From a virus (Duplodnaviria; Heunggongvirae; Uroviricota; Caudoviricetes), in the IMG/VR virus record IMGVR_UViG_2609459792_000007: 64,000 nucleotides of DNA, one strand, 5' to 3'. The position numbers were made by a program, and so were the translations under genes. The notes below the pieces were generated by a model. The model made no database searches. It saw only the letters and a list, made by a program, of their open reading frames with translations, and was not told the DNA's origin. This document shows, in pieces, positions 3,392 to 58,367 of the stretch (the stretch's first letter is position 1; the number at the start of each line of letters is the position of its first letter).

Positions 3392-3721
3392 ATGTTTGCA
3401 AATATCGACATCAACCAAATCAAGAAATTAACTCAAAAAGAGTTTGATCAGTTTTATGAGTTAGAAGGTTGGTCTTCCACTCTGATCAATTCGCGGTGGG
3501 TGCTTGAGCTGATGACTCGTGATGACGCACCTGCTTTGATGATCAGCGACCTGGGTGAAGATGCTGACTTTATGGATATGAGCGAATTTTGTGTGGACAC
3601 ATACAACCGCAGCCAGAAGTACTACTTCACATGCGATAGCGAAAATGACGTGATTTCTAAGGTCTATCTTCACCTCGTCCAGCATTGGGACGTTCAGGAG
3701 TTTCTTGAAGTATTCGAGTAA
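3392..3721 (+). CDS. hypothetical small acidic protein
   Basis: ATG 3392 with RBS aagga at 3380-3384; ORF track alternative start 3374 lies inside the operator; D/E-rich translation. Confidence 0.6.
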   Translation: MFANIDINQIKKLTQKEFDQFYELEGWSSTLINSRWVLELMTRDDAPALMISDLGEDADFMDMSEFCVDTYNRSQKYYFTCDSENDVISKVYLHLVQHWDVQEFLEVFE

Positions 3722-52772: not shown

Positions 52773-54091
52773 AAAAGTTGATCGCACTTAAGCATAAGCT
52801 GGACGAAATGAAAGCTATGGGAACCAATGCAAAAAAAGAGGCATTGGCCAACATGGATGACTTTGAACAAAGCATGGTTTCATTGATGCTCAACCCTTTC
52901 ATCCGTTTTGGGGTAAAGAAATACAAAGTGGCAGAGCCGCTTAGTGAGTCCGTCCCAAGTGACGAAAAAGCCATTGATGTACTGAATAAGCTGGCCTCTC
53001 GCGAGCTGACGGGGAACGCAGCAATAGTTGCTGTTGAGTCTATCGTAGCGTCAATGTGCGCCGATGGGCAGGACGTGTTCCGTCGTTTCCTCTTAAAAGA
53101 CCCGAAAGCAGGTGTTGGGATTAGCCTATGCAACAAGGTTTTTGAGAATCCCATTCCGAAATTCGAGGTGCAGCTGGCGTCACCGTATAAAGAAAAAGGC
53201 GACAAATACCCCTTCAAGCCAAATCCTAAAGCAAAATGGCCGATGATTGGCAGTCTTAAGCTCGATGGTTTGCGAGTAATTTGCGAGGTTATTGTTGACG
53301 AGGAAGAGGTTAACTTCCTTTCTCGTACTGGTAATCCAATCACGTCTCTCGATCACCTAAAGCCAGCAATGCTCGAATTAGGCAAACTTTCAGGCCACAA
53401 ACACATCTTCTTCGATGGTGAAGGAACAGCCGGTTCATTTAACCAGTCCGTATCTGCATTGCGCAAAAAGAACGTGCAGGCAATTGGCGCTATTTATCAT
53501 GTTTTCGACTTCTTCCTACCGGAATGGCGGGCACAGGCTAAATCCAAAGAGTATGCAAAGACAGGTATGAAGCTGAAAGAGCGCCTGGCTATGCTGGTGG
53601 CGTTGTTCAAAAACGATCGCAGTGAAGGCTACGGACAAGACATTCACCTGCATCCGTTCTATATCATCCATAGCCACGAAGATTTCATCGAACGCTTTAT
53701 GAAACGCCTGGACGATAACGAAGAAGGGGAGATGGGCAAAGATCCGAACTCTGTTTACGAGTTTAAACGTACCCGCAGCTGGTGGAAGTTAAAAGACGAA
53801 GATTCAGAAGATGGTGAAATTATCGACTTTGAGCCGGGCGACCCGGACTCTGGTTTTGCCAACACACTTGGAAAAATTGTTATTCGTCTTGAAAACGGCG
53901 TCATCGTTCGTGCGAGCGGCATTAAGCATAAATATCTGGACGAGATCTGGAACAACAAAGAGAAGTACCGTGGTCGTATTGTTGAGGTTCATTGTCACGA
54001 GAAAACGCCGGATGGCAGCTTACGCCACCCACGACTGAAATGGCCGCGTTGCTTACGCGATACAGAAGATCGAATCGGAGATAAAGAATGA
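52769..54091 (+). CDS. ATP-dependent DNA ligase
   Basis: Adenylation motif KLDGLR (SLKLDGLRVICEV) and downstream nucleotidyltransferase-like motifs. Confidence 0.8.
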   Translation: MKKLIALKHKLDEMKAMGTNAKKEALANMDDFEQSMVSLMLNPFIRFGVKKYKVAEPLSESVPSDEKAIDVLNKLASRELTGNAAIVAVESIVASMCADGQDVFRRFLLKDPKAGVGISLCNKVFENPIPKFEVQLASPYKEKGDKYPFKPNPKAKWPMIGSLKLDGLRVICEVIVDEEEVNFLSRTGNPITSLDHLKPAMLELGKLSGHKHIFFDGEGTAGSFNQSVSALRKKNVQAIGAIYHVFDFFLPEWRAQAKSKEYAKTGMKLKERLAMLVALFKNDRSEGYGQDIHLHPFYIIHSHEDFIERFMKRLDDNEEGEMGKDPNSVYEFKRTRSWWKLKDEDSEDGEIIDFEPGDPDSGFANTLGKIVIRLENGVIVRASGIKHKYLDEIWNNKEKYRGRIVEVHCHEKTPDGSLRHPRLKWPRCLRDTEDRIGDKE

Positions 54092-54267
54092 TGCTCGGCT
54101 GGATGATTGCATTTTTAGCGGTTGGTTTTTTAATCGGTATTGTGGTGATGTCCAGTTGCATCAATGACTACATTAAAAGCGGTGTTATAGAACGACGCGG
54201 TCGTATTTATCGCATTGTAGAAATAACCCACACAGTGAAGGAGATTAAGGATGATCGTATTAAGTAA
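54088..54267 (+). CDS. small membrane protein (59 aa), not in ORF track
   Basis: ATGA overlap with ligase stop; N-terminal TM helix; C-terminal RIYRIVEIT resembles the ORF at 54463. Confidence 0.35.
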   Translation: MMLGWMIAFLAVGFLIGIVVMSSCINDYIKSGVIERRGRIYRIVEITHTVKEIKDDRIK

Positions 54268-54466
54268 GCGGGAGAAGGAAACGCTTCATGAAATCAGTAA
54301 GTGGCCGGAGTTCCCTGAGTACTGGAAGCCTAAAACGCGGGCTAAGTTAGAGCGGTTAGGGTTGGTTGCAAACGTTTCTGAAACGTGGTGTTCGGCCAAC
54401 TACCAGTTAACTGATAAAGGGAAAGTATTGCTACAGCAATTAGTAGAATCAGGAGCGTTAAAATGA
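54251..54466 (+). CDS. hypothetical protein (71 aa)
   Basis: ORF with RBS gaaggag. Confidence 0.45.
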   Translation: MIVLSKREKETLHEISKWPEFPEYWKPKTRAKLERLGLVANVSETWCSANYQLTDKGKVLLQQLVESGALK

Positions 54467-54615
54467 TTCCATACATCTCATTAGCTTTTATGGGTGGCTT
54501 CCTTATTGGCTTCGGCATCTGTCGTGATTTAATTAAGCAGGAACTTAAAACCAAAACACTGTGCATCGGAAAGCGTGTGTATCGGGTAGTTCATGAAACA
54601 AAGGTTAGAAAATGA
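54463..54615 (+). CDS. small membrane protein (50 aa), paralogue-like, not in ORF track
   Basis: RBS aggagcg; starts with the ATGATTCCATACATC word; TM helix then RVYRVVHET. Confidence 0.35.
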   Translation: MIPYISLAFMGGFLIGFGICRDLIKQELKTKTLCIGKRVYRVVHETKVRK

Positions 54616-54902
54616 GCAATTTAACTTCTTGGGACTGGTGGTTGGTCACCTATTTCTTAGCGGCTGGAGTAGCATTCGCCTTTTACGTAGGTCAGTTAGT
54701 CGTAAAACTGTTGCTGATTAAATTTGCTAGTCATAAACGTATCGATGATGGTCTGTGGCGTCTTGGCACCTTGGTGGAAACTCGCTACGGGCAACTTAAG
54801 GAGAACGAAACCATTACTATCCAAGCGAAACGATTCACTGCCACCATCACAAGAACACCTAGTCGTAGAGTGGCCTTGATCAAAAAAGTCACAACCGAAT
54901 AA
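54612..54902 (+). CDS. membrane protein (96 aa)
   Basis: N-terminal TM helix WWLVTYFLAAGVAFAFYV. Confidence 0.45.
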   Translation: MSNLTSWDWWLVTYFLAAGVAFAFYVGQLVVKLLLIKFASHKRIDDGLWRLGTLVETRYGQLKENETITIQAKRFTATITRTPSRRVALIKKVTTE

Positions 54903-54910
54903 AAATACAA

Positions 54911-54933
54911 TGATAAGTATTTACTTACTTATC
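54911..54933. promoter_or_regulatory. family B motif GATAAGTA-N7-ACTTATC
   Basis: Inverted GATAAGT arms at the start of the structured region before the tRNAs. Confidence 0.45.
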
Positions 54934-55681
54934 TTATATGTATAAGATGACTTTGTTTTCGTTGAGACGCGACTGTTTGAACTTAAATACAAGTGCAAAC
55001 GAAGAAGTCTATCTGGCAGTAGCCTAATAAGCCAAACACCAGCGAGGTCAGTTTCCAGCCTCGTTACCGAAATGGGACACACTGAGCGAGTGTGATTGCA
55101 GAACGCAGGAGGGAACATTCATGTTCCCTCCGATGAAGTAACAGAATGGGCGGTTGGTATATTTTCAACTCCATATGACTCCCGGATTCTTAGCCACTGA
55201 CCGCCCATTCTGTTACGTCATTTTGTTCAATTATGTCGTTTATACTGGGTTAAAAAGCGGCGACGTAGCCCGGCTGGTATGGTCAGCCAGCACACAACGT
55301 TGAGGCCATTACATTTTTATCAATTCTAAGGTTCTATTCACAGAGATACCGGCGAGCGTTGATATGTAACATGTTGGGCAAACATTCAATCGGAGTAGTG
55401 GCCTCAACGTTGTGAAAATAGGATAGTTGTGTAGGTTTAACCACTGTTGCCATTGGTACCTGTTTTCACAACAAATGATTCCATACATCACATTGTATAA
55501 ATTACAAAGTAGGTGCTGTCCTCAGAAACATCATCTACTTAAATAATTTGCCTTCTACTATTGAGCGAAGTCGAAAGCGTCTGGCACTAACGAAAAGTGC
55601 AAGTAGCGGTGCGTTTCCTGGCAGAAACTAACACCGCCGCGATTGGCACTGTTGAGTAATAAATACTGGCAGTGCTGAATT

Positions 55682-55756
55682 GATGGTGTAGCTCAGCGGT
55701 AGAGCAGTTGGCTGTTAACCAACTGGTCGGTGGTTCGAATCCACCCACCATCGCCA
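55682..55756 (+). tRNA. tRNA-Asn (anticodon GTT)
   Basis: Manual cloverleaf: acceptor gatggtg/caccatc, D arm gctc-agcggta-gagc, anticodon loop ctGTTaa, T loop ttcgaat. Confidence 0.85.
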
Positions 55757-55761
55757 ATTTA

Positions 55762-55848
55762 GGGGAGTTAGTCCGTAGAGGTAGCGGGGTAGACTGTAAA
55801 TCTACTGTCATGGAGACTCGGGTGGTTCGACTCCATCACTCCCCACCA
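55762..55848 (+). tRNA. tRNA-Tyr (anticodon GTA), long variable arm
   Basis: Acceptor ggggagt/actcccc, anticodon stem-loop gtaga-ctGTAaa-tctac, long variable arm, T loop ttcgact, 3' CCA. Confidence 0.7.
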
Positions 55849-55852
55849 AATT

Positions 55853-55928
55853 GCCGGTTTAGCTCAGTTGGTAGAGCGCCTGCCTTGTAAGCAGGATGTC
55901 AGCGGTTCGAGTCCGTTAACCGGCACCA
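55853..55928 (+). tRNA. tRNA-Thr (anticodon TGT)
   Basis: Acceptor gccggtt/aaccggc, D arm gctc-agttggta-gagc, anticodon loop ctTGTaa, T loop ttcgagt, 3' CCA. Confidence 0.8.
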
Positions 55929-56152
55929 ATACAACGATAAGATCATTACGGTTAATCGTCGTTCATGTGCACAATGACTGGTCGAAAGGTAGTGATCTTA
56001 CCGTTGTGGTGGATTCGCAGACTGATGCGATAGCTTTCTTGGATGTTAGGGAAATGCGGCCGCAAATCTTCCCTTTCGCGAGCGGTGATCGTCCGTAGTC
56101 CTAATTGGCTGCACCGTATGCCGGAGATTCAGTACCGGCCACCACAACGGCC

Positions 56153-56239
56153 GGAGAGTAGGGAGCATGGTGCTCAAGCGGTCTTGAAAACCGTCCCATT
56201 GCGCAAGCGATGATGGTTCGATTCCATTACTCTCCGCCA
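56153..56239 (+). tRNA. tRNA-Ser (anticodon TGA), long variable arm
   Basis: Acceptor ggagagt/actctcc, anticodon stem-loop gcggt-ctTGAaa-accgt, long variable arm, T loop ttcgatt, 3' CCA. Confidence 0.7.
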
Positions 56240-56396
56240 GACACAGCGTTGAGCGGTTTGGCCTTTTAATCAACTCGATTAAGACTCCGCTAACATAAAC
56301 CAGACCGCTCAACGCTGTGATAGACAATTACGGCAGACGTTCTTAACCATAGCTTGCTAACATCCTAGCAACACTTTTTTTCAGCGCAAAATTCAA

Positions 56397-56423
56397 AGGG
56401 GCTTCGGCCCCTTTTTTGCAACT
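56397..56423 (+). terminator. rho-independent terminator after tRNA cluster
   Basis: aaaggggc-ttcg-gcccctttt followed by ttgc. Confidence 0.85.
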
Positions 56424-56460
56424 GAAAGAGTCAAGTCTACGAACTTTGTAGGGAGAAATA

Positions 56461-56811
56461 ATGACCAGCAAAGAGAACACACCACTAAAAGTCACCCCTG
56501 AACACATTGAACAACTCATTCAAAGTGAACATTATTTCACTGCATATGATGCCAGCCACGGGGATAACTTCATCTCTGTTTACAATTCAAAAACAGATAT
56601 CGACAAAGGTCATGAGTCGTTAAAACTCTTAACGTTCTGCGTTATGGTTCTCAAAAATGGATATACCGTAACGGGAAAATCTGCGTGCGTAAGACCAGAA
56701 ATCTTCAACTTTGATGTTGGTCGTGAGTACGCTCGAAAAGATGCTATCGATCAAATCTGGCCCCTGGAAGGCTATCTCCTGAAGCAAAAGTGGCATGAGG
56801 CAAAGCAATGA
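56461..56811 (+). CDS. hypothetical protein (116 aa)
   Basis: ORF with RBS gggagaaataATG; coupled to glutaredoxin gene. Confidence 0.5.
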   Translation: MTSKENTPLKVTPEHIEQLIQSEHYFTAYDASHGDNFISVYNSKTDIDKGHESLKLLTFCVMVLKNGYTVTGKSACVRPEIFNFDVGREYARKDAIDQIWPLEGYLLKQKWHEAKQ

Positions 56812-57263: not shown

Positions 57264-58367
57264 ATGAAAAATAGCTTTGACAGAGCACGCGCTGCGGAGA
57301 ACACCTCAAAAGAGGCGATTGAGTATCTCGAAAGAGCATCTCAAATGCAGGCCGTTATGATCTCGCAGGTTAGCATTGATATGAGATTCTCGGACGCATT
57401 CATGTTATTCACTCGCTTATCTCTGCTGATAACCAGACGTCGGCCAGAGATCGCTGTTCATTGTATTTTGATACATGTTTTGCCGCACATTGCCGATGTA
57501 AAAGTAAGTGACATTAATAGGTTCATGGTGAACCAGCTGGTCAACCCACTAATACTGGATGGCAAAATTGTTATGGGCCGCCGCGTTTTCTCTCTGATGA
57601 AACAGTTCCTTAGCTGGTGCGCCTTCCAGGGGATGATAGACGTGTCACCGTTAAACGATATGTCACTAAACAAAGTTGCCGGTGGCGCAAAGCCCACACC
57701 TCGCGAGCGGAAGCTGACCGACGCAGAGGTATGGGTGTTCTGGAATATATGGGACTACTTCAATGTGTGCGCTGGTACAAAATGGGCGGCCAGGCTGTGT
57801 CTTGTATCAGCAAGACGACCTGACGAAGTACTGCGGGCTAAAAAAAGTGAGTTCAATCTTAAGCGTGGGGTTTGGAATCAAGGCAAGAGAAACAAGTCAG
57901 CACGTGAGCATTCGCTGCCTTTAAGCACATTAATGCGCACATGCATTGAAGAGTTGTTCGAATACGGTAAAGACAGCCAGTGGCTCGTGCCTTCGAATAA
58001 AAAAATCGGGAAAGACCTTCCTATGTCTAAAGTGGCAATAGCCCAGGCATTACGTCGTATTCTGGAACGACCAGAACTGATGGAGCTTGAGCCATTTACA
58101 CCCCGAGATTTGCGCCGTACTGCGCGTAGTTACTTCCCAGCATTAGGCATAAGCCAGGAGGTATCACGCAAAATCATGAACCACAGTCTTGAGGGGATAG
58201 ATCGGGTCTACGACCGGCACGATTATATGGACGAGATGCGAGACGCCTTAGAAAGTTTCTCGACGTACATCGCATCAATCGTAGAGCAACCGGATTTAGA
58301 CGAAATTGACCACAAATTCAAGGGAGATCGTCTATCAACAGAGCTTATTCGTGTAAATTTTTCATAG
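57264..58367 (+). CDS. tyrosine recombinase / integrase family protein
   Basis: C-terminal catalytic-domain-like residues (ARRPDE, DLRRTARSY, MNHS, RVYDRHDY). Confidence 0.7.
   Translation: MKNSFDRARAAENTSKEAIEYLERASQMQAVMISQVSIDMRFSDAFMLFTRLSLLITRRRPEIAVHCILIHVLPHIADVKVSDINRFMVNQLVNPLILDGKIVMGRRVFSLMKQFLSWCAFQGMIDVSPLNDMSLNKVAGGAKPTPRERKLTDAEVWVFWNIWDYFNVCAGTKWAARLCLVSARRPDEVLRAKKSEFNLKRGVWNQGKRNKSAREHSLPLSTLMRTCIEELFEYGKDSQWLVPSNKKIGKDLPMSKVAIAQALRRILERPELMELEPFTPRDLRRTARSYFPALGISQEVSRKIMNHSLEGIDRVYDRHDYMDEMRDALESFSTYIASIVEQPDLDEIDHKFKGDRLSTELIRVNFS

Follow-up and report, generated by a model that had tools for sequence, protein, structure and literature searches.

The DNA analysed here is a 64,000-nucleotide stretch from a tailed virus (Caudoviricetes; IMG/VR record IMGVR_UViG_2609459792_000007), referred to below as the window, and the locus of interest is a group of transfer RNA (tRNA) genes at positions 55682-56239 together with the noncoding DNA around it. 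Judged by its sequence, the window is an SSU5-like E. coli phage-plasmid because of its nucleotide identity to relatives and its structural genes. Over the 24 kb around the tRNA site, identity was 97-98% with the Escherichia phages CMS-2020a, Cyrano, and PhiR41_1 and approximately 80% with Salmonella phage SSU5, and genes for terminase, portal, major tail, tape-measure, and tail-fibre proteins were present at 15-42 kb. ARAGORN was run on the whole window and returned only four tRNA genes, each of them on the + strand and with its 3' CCA encoded: tRNA-Asn(GUU) at 55682-55756, tRNA-Tyr(GUA) at 55762-55848, tRNA-Thr(UGU) at 55853-55928, and tRNA-Ser(UGA) at 56153-56239. Against the Rfam tRNA model RF00005 (gathering score 29 bits), tRNA-Asn, tRNA-Tyr, and tRNA-Thr scored 75.5, 43.5, and 74.9 bits, respectively. 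A preliminary description of this stretch had proposed the same set; its identity, coordinates, and strand were all confirmed by ARAGORN, with Rfam backing three of the four genes. The two long variable arms reported there belong to tRNA-Tyr and tRNA-Ser, both class II and 87 nt in length, the former with discriminator A, and ARAGORN accepted both folds.

The four genes were aligned to thrU, asnT, tyrU, and serT of E. coli K-12. tRNA-Thr was identical to thrU at 61/76 positions, tRNA-Asn to asnT in 50/77 aligned columns, and tRNA-Tyr to tyrU in 63/90 aligned columns. The possibility that the genes are attachment-site duplicates was rejected, as none is truncated and identity to the host genes is only 65-80%. 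tRNA-Ser was atypical, with a compact D-arm (4-bp stem, 5-nt loop) and a 5-6-bp variable arm with a GCAA loop. It fell below the gathering score of RF00005, and its best Rfam alignment was to the tRNA-Sec model (RF01852) at 46.6 bits, where the gathering score is 47. It was not accepted as tRNA-Sec, since its anticodon loop, CUUGAAA, reads UGA (Ser codons UCN) rather than UCA and the score was sub-threshold. The pairs G1-C72, G2-C71, and A3-U70 and the discriminator G are the same as in serT; by the general rules for this isotype, the gene carries the tRNA-Ser identity elements. The tRNA-Ser cloverleaf appears to be maintained by selection because compensatory changes occur in the acceptor, D-stem, and variable-arm pairs of relatives. 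In a Klebsiella plasmid, the acceptor AG/CU is replaced by GA/UC and a D-stem A-U by G-C, with both strands of the helix changed, and in an E. marmotae plasmid, a variable-arm C-G is replaced by U-A. The variable-arm tetraloop changes from GCAA to GAAA among relatives. The isotype of this tRNA was not called by tRNAscan-SE in the D6 GenBank record, and ARAGORN detected the gene in P7 although it is unannotated in P7's own record. By every sequence criterion used, the four tRNAs are predicted to be functional.

Between tRNA-Thr and tRNA-Ser lies a gap of 224 bp (55929-56152), not 225 bp as first described, in which neither ARAGORN nor Rfam (E<=10) found a tRNA. This agrees with the earlier remark that the gap did not fold into one. 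The accompanying suggestion of a degenerate tRNA gene was not borne out: no tRNA model matches, and the gap holds two modules of a conserved structured-RNA family with covariation in 73 homologues. The + strand folds as two domains (z = -2.3). The first, hairpin-1 (55936-56002, + strand), was taken from the minimum free energy fold and consists of the arms GAUAAGAUCAUUAC (55936-55949) and GUAGUGAUCUUACC (55989-56002), with 13 of 14 arm positions paired, a 39-nt apical region, and a conserved ACAACG directly 5'. The second, recognized by folding, a profile match, and covariation, is here termed the type-A tRNA-shaped scaffold RNA (56001-56150, + strand). Its closing stem, P1, pairs 56001-56012 (CCGUUGUGGUGG) with 56139-56150 (CCACCACAACGG), the 7-bp family core being 56005-56011 with 56140-56146. 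Enclosed by P1 are hairpin Pa (56015-56019 with 56026-56030, loop GACUGA), a structured cargo insert (56031-56117), and hairpin Pb (56120-56124 with 56135-56139, loop AGAUUCAGUA). The ACUGA of loop a (56021-56025) and the UCAGU of loop b (56129-56133) are complementary. ACAAC...ACAAC flanks the unit, which ends 2 nt 5' of tRNA-Ser. nhmmer searches with the two family half-profiles found one scaffold copy only in the window (E 1.7e-5 and 1.1e-6), which was 97.5% identical to the P7 and D6 copies. A coding reading of the gap was rejected, as the overlapping open reading frames (ORFs; 55868-56098, 56043-56213, and, on the - strand, 56046-56327) run into the tRNA genes.

When the gap was used as a BLAST query, divergent copies were detected in unannotated DNA of unrelated phages, namely Jedunavirus, T1-like phages of Klebsiella and E. 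coli, and podophages of 72 kb. A 25-nt pattern taken from the scaffold's 5' part matched at least 120 IMG/VR loci, from which 93 distinct units were extracted. Each has a conserved 5' UGUGGUGAAUGCGCAGGCUGAUGCGC, an insert of 9-338 nt (median 70), and a conserved AAGCCGGAGAUCAGCACCGGCCACCACA, and the inserts fall into 55 sequence classes. Insert lengths modulo 3 were distributed 25/34/34 with no 3-nt periodicity, and a coding reading of the inserts was discarded. For a test of the structure, the insert was replaced by a placeholder and 73 equal-length units were aligned. Pairing was found in 88.9% of cells, compared with 24-48% when the partners were slid; 11 pairs showed double-sided changes, 4 of the 5 Pb pairs covaried, and the 7-bp core of the closing stem was at least 97% paired. 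Loop a (GCUGA) and loop b (UCAGC) were complementary in 98.6% of cells, and the ACUGA/UCAGU of the window represents a compensatory A-U for G-C. Hairpin-1 was located 5' of 56 of the 93 units, where shuffles gave an expectation of 0, and its arms covary. The weight of this alignment is reduced by the fact that its 5' half was fixed by the search pattern; only the outer stem, the loop partner, and the 3' half count as independent evidence.

The modelled layout of the scaffold is tRNA-like, with a 7-bp stem, a 2-3-nt linker, a D-arm-like hairpin, the cargo at the place of the anticodon arm, and a 5-bp T-arm-like hairpin abutting the 3' strand. This cloverleaf-like order of helices is what a degenerate (pseudo-)tRNA gene might retain, and a T-arm-like GGTTCGAnTCC is present in the hairpin-1 apex or the cargo of some relatives (D6 and the loci L110, L014, L035, and L269). 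However, the window copy has neither a T-loop nor a D-loop consensus, and the blank ARAGORN and Rfam results for the gap speak against such a gene as well. At least 93 distinct units with a conserved scaffold, covariation, and a hypervariable insert indicate a maintained RNA rather than decay, and most copies are not beside tRNAs. We consider a pseudo-tRNA gene very improbable. The scaffold is not a decayed copy of a tRNA gene; given its tRNA-like layout, it may have a distant evolutionary link to tRNA.

The inverted repeats could instead act as DNA, for example as an operator, a signal for replication or priming, or the attachment site of a recombinase. The element is partly palindromic, and a tyrosine recombinase gene lies 1 kb downstream. 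One-sided helix changes, however, were mostly G-U or U-G on the tRNA strand, which are A-C mismatches on the other strand, and the + strand of the gap folded better than the - strand (-76.5 versus -65.5 kcal/mol). In addition, 46 of the 48 tRNAs in the family loci were on the same strand as the unit, and the insert varies in length over the wide range given above. Action at the DNA level is therefore the least probable of the explanations considered, and hardly to be expected.

The tRNA set is in itself ordinary and already known, with homologous genes annotated in P7, D6, Cyrano, and Ro157c2YLVW. As far as the compared sequences indicate, the cassette is common to SSU5-like and P1-like elements and is modular, with the general form Asn-(Tyr)-Thr-(0-3 RNA units)-Ser. 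Cyrano has Asn-Thr-Ser, with Thr and Ser 8 bp apart (ACACAATT); the window and E. coli plasmid p4_0.2 have Asn-Tyr-Thr-(RNA unit)-Ser; P7 and D6 have Asn-Thr-(two units)-Ser-(one unit)...Met; the E. marmotae plasmid has Asn-Tyr-Thr-...(another unit type)-Ser; and the Klebsiella plasmid has Asn-Ser. tRNA-Tyr is without a counterpart in the close relative Cyrano and has one in Punavirus Ro157c2YLVW. In the P1-like cassettes (Asn and Thr in P1/P7; Asn, Thr, and Ser in D6; Asn, Tyr, and Thr in Ro157c2YLVW), isoacceptors, order, and orientation are as in the window. The Asn-Tyr-Thr block of Ro157c2YLVW was 91% identical to that of the window, and the P7 and D6 copies were 89% (Asn) and 87-88% (Thr) identical. 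The 3' 162 nt of the gap together with tRNA-Ser were 96-97.5% identical to P7 and D6, and because this block is closer to P7/D6 than the neighbouring tRNAs are, the comparison points to a recent exchange. The two kinds of element differ in backbone (an SSU5-like siphovirus in the window, a myovirus in the P1-like elements) and in the number of RNA units between Thr and Ser (one in the window, two in P7 and D6). Unlike the P1-like cassette, the window has no downstream tci genes and no tRNA-Met/Ile.

Gain and loss of units between near-identical elements, as between Thr-ACACAATT-Ser in Cyrano and ACAAC...ACAAC in the window, would also fit a gap RNA that has no function of its own and consists of processing or insulator spacers (RNase III/E sites) or of a selfish recombination module moving via its conserved flanks. 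Long perfect hairpins punctuate the operon, and one scaffold homologue adjoins an HNH endonuclease. On the other hand, conservation of approximately 55 scaffold nt, loop bases and their mutual complementarity among them, extends from Enterobacterales to Janthinobacterium and Marinobacterium, which exceeds the needs of a spacer. Most copies stand alone, several with a terminator-like hairpin and U-run instead of a tRNA, and the cargo helices of the window type are kept by compensatory change, with 8 of 44 pairs changed on both sides in a Jedunavirus homologue. A functionless gap RNA is accordingly judged improbable, and the reading of the gap as a separate structured RNA gene, composed of a long hairpin and a tRNA-shaped scaffold and placed inside the tRNA array, would better accommodate these observations.

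Of 5426 complete E. coli genomes, 1348 carry the scaffold, with both chromosomal and plasmid-borne copies, and it was unannotated in all 40 matches listed. In the GTDB set with one genome per species, 63 scaffold loci were found, in many Enterobacterales genera and in Aeromonas, Marinobacterium, Chromohalobacter, Salinicola, Massilia, Janthinobacterium, and Undibacterium. On these sequence matches, the family spans phages and prophages of Gamma- and Betaproteobacteria. Its neighbours in three GTDB genomes include RecT, a DnaB-like helicase, and O/P-like replication proteins. In Undibacterium sp. Jales W-56, spacer 16 of a 31-repeat array of clustered regularly interspaced short palindromic repeats (repeat GTTCACTGCCGCACAGGCAGCTTAGAAA; locus 929-960) targets the scaffold, matching its 5' half in another Undibacterium genome at 31 of 32 positions. 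Neither the window's unit nor those of 16 homologous loci, among them a minimal 66-nt unit, matched any Rfam 15 family. Models of Y RNA-like RNAs, the hammerhead, and other ribozymes gave no match, and the CUGAUG in loop a is coincidental. No prior description was found by scaffold sequence or keyword in the literature searched, and none matched in the supplement of the Pas small RNA (sRNA) preprint. The family is thus present in about a quarter of complete E. coli genomes, absent from Rfam, and sometimes covered by spurious ORFs, as is probably the case for a "hypothetical protein" coding sequence of BUCT610 (- strand, locus 1866-2168) that overlaps the scaffold RNA. A name and a model for it would benefit the annotation of phages and plasmids and open the question of the role of the cargo.

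If RNase P cleaved at the 5' end of tRNA-Ser, it would set the 3' end of the scaffold RNA 2 nt past the closing stem. Such maturation cannot be general because a same-strand tRNA was found within 600 nt of only 15 of 92 units; a generally tight association of scaffold and tRNA was only partly borne out and was not retained. A tRNA was present within 15 nt 3' of 8 units, five of which precede this tRNA-Ser(UGA). Embedding in a tRNA array is one context among several, and several other type-A units have a terminator-like hairpin with a U-run on their 3' side. The scaffold would most likely give stability and defined ends to the cargo domain. By analogy with STnc100 and PasD, a regulatory or decoy RNA may be guessed at.

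STnc100 and its relative PasD are encoded by prophages in Salmonella and pathogenic E. coli. STnc100 is a prophage sRNA of unknown function for which a common ancestor with PasD has been proposed, and targets obtained by RNA interaction by ligation and sequencing (RIL-seq) have been reported for PasD, not for STnc100 (bioRxiv 10.64898/2026.05.13.724894; PMC12370729). Both STnc100 and the window unit are phage-borne. In each, a 7-bp closing stem (CAUGGUG/CACCAUG and UGUGGUG/CACCACA, respectively) is followed by an AAU linker, the first hairpin, and a middle region that varies, and a 5-bp CCGGN hairpin then sits against the stem's 3' strand. Genuine STnc100 reads CAUGGUG-AAU-hairpin-variable-CCGGGAGGCACCCGG-CACCAUG followed by a tail and terminator, with a promoter-like sequence 5' (read by eye). 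Unlike STnc100, the window unit sits between two tRNAs, with hairpin-1 on its 5' side and no tail or terminator. In P7, D6, and Ro157, the corresponding slot holds paralogous "type B" units, which scored 38-43 bits against the STnc100 model (RF02076, gathering score 47 bits) and are alike in architecture. As type-A half-profiles found no sequence similarity in 120 STnc100 loci by nhmmer, the proposed link rests on architecture and on the intermediate "type B" unit. The window unit did not match RF02076 at E<=10 (region 55300-56500) and was not accepted as a member; we file it as a putative sister class outside RF02076 that is STnc100-like in architecture.

The T4 tRNA cluster contains stable non-tRNA RNAs, "species 1 and 2" (rnaC, rnaD), of approximately 120-140 nt, which are matured with the tRNAs and whose function is unknown. 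The window would share with it the presence of a non-tRNA stable RNA inside a phage tRNA cluster. T4 was not among the 60 phage records that matched the gap spacer.

Three minor observations concern loci that carry the scaffold. Contigs labelled as a Geobacteraceae metagenome-assembled genome, an Acidobacteriota metagenome-assembled genome, and Martelella alba contain the enterobacterial hairpin-1 and scaffold followed by tRNAs, which points to contamination or mis-binning and not to a genuine range of hosts; the cargo insert of the Geobacteraceae-labelled contig has D-arm-like and T-arm-like sequences. Sub-threshold matches to the Rfam RprA model (41-51 bits, gathering score 70) were obtained in three type-A loci (L105, 3064-3181; L018, 2944-3046; L023, 4362-4460) and may be phage-borne RprA-like sRNAs. 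Escherichia phage 24-32N (locus 2140-2700) has a 1.5-kb unannotated gap 3' of the scaffold, which contains several sequences with T-arm motifs (GGTTCGAGTCC, GGTTCGATTCC), not called as tRNAs by ARAGORN, and one tRNA of undetermined type.

The anticodons of three of the four tRNAs coincide with those of tRNAs attacked by known defence systems. [quoted passage not shown] P2-OLD cuts tRNA-Thr(UGU) in its anticodon arm, at a CNG motif that is paired, and phage Thr(UGU) genes rescue; resistance goes with an altered paired CNG motif and/or a shortened anticodon stem, and retron-Eco7 PtuAB targets tRNA-Tyr(GUA) (PMC12445682). The Asn(GUU), Thr(UGU), and Tyr(GUA) genes of the window are thus the isoacceptors cut by PARIS, P2-OLD, and retron-Eco7. 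The anticodon arm of tRNA-Asn is GUUGG-CUGUUAA-CCAAC, giving U36-A-A-C39-C40-A41 where asnT has U36AAU39C40C41 (UAACCA versus UAAUCC; U39C and C41A). That of tRNA-Thr is CCUGC-CUUGUAA-GCAGG, giving U36-A-A-G39-C40-A41 where thrU has ACUGA/UCAGU and U36AAU39C40A41 (UAAGCA versus UAAUCA; U39G). Like the nuclease-escape tRNAs of T5 and other coliphages, with which it shares anticodons, the window set combines AriB-target anticodons (Thr, Asn) with anticodon-stem substitutions at positions 39-41, beside the cleavage site. The Asn, Thr, and Tyr tRNAs would replace host tRNAs destroyed by PARIS AriB, P2-OLD, and retron-Eco7 PtuAB, and the changed base 39 in the Thr and Asn copies, inside the UAAU element beside the AriB cut site, could confer resistance.

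Several points weigh against this interpretation. Putting the site back into the T5 tRNA-Lys did not make it cleavable, so position 39 is not the sole determinant (PMC12409363), and the substitutions in the window are U39G and U39C whereas the one tested in the AriB work was U39A. tRNA-Lys(UUU), the prime AriB target, was not found in the window by ARAGORN, and because the cassette is without it, full evasion of PARIS is argued against. The window tRNA-Thr keeps the C28UG30/C40AG42 motif and a 5-bp stem, and on that account it is not predicted to be resistant to P2-OLD. The P7 Asn allele reads UAAUCA, so position 39 is not uniformly changed among phage copies. A second Thr(UGU) allele, GUCGC/GCGAA, whose stem has 4 bp and which has lost the CNG motif, is carried by the near-identical CMS-2020a SCU-175, by Ro157, and by others. 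Two alleles each of the phage Thr (CCUGC/GCAGG and GUCGC/GCGAA) and Asn (C39 and U39) genes are thus present among closely related phage-plasmids; such segregation at the anticodon stem would be as expected in an arms race with anticodon-arm nucleases. Nuclease-escape tRNAs are known from virulent coliphages, whereas the carrier here is a temperate phage-plasmid. The cassette offers a compact natural test case for phage tRNAs as counter-defence tools.

The preliminary description had called for a comparison of late-gene codon usage with host tRNA abundance. Window ORFs were compared with 38 annotated K-12 genes (12,057 codons), and the answer was divided: demand for tRNA-Ser(UGA) and tRNA-Thr(UGU) was raised in the structural genes, and that for Asn and Tyr was not. 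Codons read by tRNA-Ser(UGA) occurred at 46.5 per 1000 in the structural block versus 29.3 in the host genes (1.59x), and those read by tRNA-Thr(UGU) at 55.2 versus 41.7 (1.32x; ACA alone, 1.54x), whereas Asn and Tyr codons were at 1.12x and 1.01x, showing no enrichment. TCT, TAC, TCA, and ACA were among the 12 most enriched codons. A single annotated K-12 gene was found for each of the Thr-UGU (thrU) and Ser-UGA (serT) anticodons, which we take to be the sole copies. These two tRNAs may top up scarce host isoacceptors whose codons the structural genes over-use. A role in codon supply also has points against it: the host reference comprised only 38 genes, the enrichment was modest, and no phage tRNA matches the codons with the highest enrichment, AAG (2.5x), GAG, and AGA.

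Codon supplementation on its own, with the resemblance to nuclease targets a coincidence, would draw on the Ser, Thr, and ACA enrichment, on the list of enriched codons, and on the single host genes found for the two anticodons. It would leave unaccounted for the Asn and Tyr genes, whose codons are not enriched, with four tRNA-Asn genes annotated in K-12 within the 50 kb examined, and the lack of phage tRNAs for the codons most over-used. Moreover, three of the four anticodons are experimentally defined nuclease targets, and two of the copies are altered at position 39. Codon supply as the only role is regarded as rather unlikely, although less so than a functionless gap RNA. We infer a mixed function in which Ser and Thr would meet codon demand, and Asn, Thr, and Tyr would replace nuclease-sensitive host tRNAs.

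The array is bordered by further structured elements. Directly 3' of tRNA-Ser lies a perfect 20-bp hairpin of the hairpin-1 type that starts CACAGCG (56242-56319, + strand) and is 98.6% identical in Cyrano; the fold of 56240-56420 had z = -7.5, and 0/200 shuffles folded as well. An intrinsic terminator, GGGGCUUCGGCCCC then U6 (56395-56418, + strand), was identified from sequence reading and folding, with a U-rich stretch 5', and also matches the terminator part of an Rfam sRNA model. A pattern scan did not detect it, since some of the U-run is taken up into the stem. It is the probable end of the noncoding operon. An upstream 20-bp hairpin of the same type, CACAACGUUGAGGCCAUUAC / GUAGUGGCCUCAACGUUGUG (55293-55414, + strand; z = -4.3), is modelled as probably on the same transcript as the tRNAs. 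The two 20-bp hairpins share with hairpin-1 the opening CACA(A/G)CG; they could mark module boundaries or serve as processing sites of the RNase III type. The four tRNAs would presumably be co-transcribed and released by host tRNA-processing enzymes, with the transcript ending at approximately 56418; it tells against this that a sigma-70 promoter scan of 54800-56600 found none. On balance, the sequence evidence makes it probable that the locus is an accessory noncoding operon, in which four functional elongator tRNAs serving codon supply and nuclease-target replacement accompany an embedded structured RNA gene.

A further unit, resembling transfer-messenger RNA (tmRNA), was located at 54940-55140 on the + strand, approximately 650 nt upstream of the tRNAs. 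Its tag template (54995-55027), found by regular-expression search and translation, reads GCA AAC GAA GAA GUC UAU CUG GCA GUA GCC UAA, or ANEEVYLAVA*. The likeness to tmRNA (ssrA) lies in a 10-codon tag that starts GCA AAC GA and ends in Ala-type residues and a stop, with hairpin/pseudoknot-like elements 3'; the E. coli tmRNA tag is ANDENYALAA. In an alignment of 9 homologues, the tag stop codon lies in the loop of a conserved covarying helix. Altogether 33 tag instances with ten peptides (ANDDLMMVAA, ANDDVVLMAA, ANEEMYLAVA, and others) were found in the loci compared, among them those of P7, D6, Ro157, Cyrano, and T1-like phages. Most tags lack a start codon and are preceded, 8 codons upstream, by an in-frame stop, and the last Ala codon varies synonymously; in-frame TTG and ATG occur upstream of the window tag, so the no-start feature is not strict there. 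Rfam tmRNA models scored 17-32 bits on the tag loci, where the gathering scores are 47-84 (in the window, tmRNA_permuted 22 and beta_tmRNA 17). tmRNA has an alanine-accepting domain (acceptor stem with G3-U70, T-arm, CCA), whereas no tRNA-like domain was found in the 54940-55140 unit; ARAGORN called no tmRNA, and inspection of 54850-55420 by eye revealed neither a T-arm nor a CCA. No description of the tag peptides was found in the literature searched. The link of this unit to the tRNA operon is suggested by orientation and synteny only.

Taken further, the region at 54.9-56.4 kb might be a dense noncoding operon of exchangeable RNA modules that includes two maybe undescribed classes, a cargo scaffold and a tag template; we hold this wider proposal tentatively and with some doubt. 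If it is true, a scaffold with approximately 55 near-invariant nt and at least 55 unrelated cargos would be the natural equivalent of the engineered tRNA scaffold. The tag template, AN[DE][DEN]xxx[AMV][AV]A*, would then occur without its own tRNA-like domain in P1-like, SSU5-like, and T1-like phages, and the unit could take part in trans-translation, aided by a separate acceptor piece, or it could disturb the tmRNA system of the host.

The preliminary description had placed the tRNA set between a membrane-protein cluster and a recombinase. A tyrosine recombinase was identified by Pfam at 57264-58367, approximately 1 kb downstream. On the upstream side, three of four small ORFs (54088-54902) have one hydrophobic segment each, which makes the term "membrane-protein cluster" plausible for this group. 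The other flanking genes of the RNA region are, besides these four small ORFs, those for an ATP-dependent DNA ligase, a Gp49-family protein, and glutaredoxin. In PLSDB, 1052 plasmids matched the tRNA region, 115 of them over at least 80% of its length, and near-identical phage-plasmids bearing the cassette are common in clinical E. coli and Klebsiella. Spurious coding calls over the RNA genes are likely in related records; CYRAN_40 of Cyrano (- strand, locus 3506-3718) overlaps tRNA-Thr and tRNA-Ser. In the region corresponding to 40000-64000 of the window, cobalamin-related genes are annotated in the Cyrano/SSU5 relatives (dimethylbenzimidazole phosphoribosyltransferase, cobalamin synthase, and "porphyrin biosynthesis"), which is unusual cargo for a phage.

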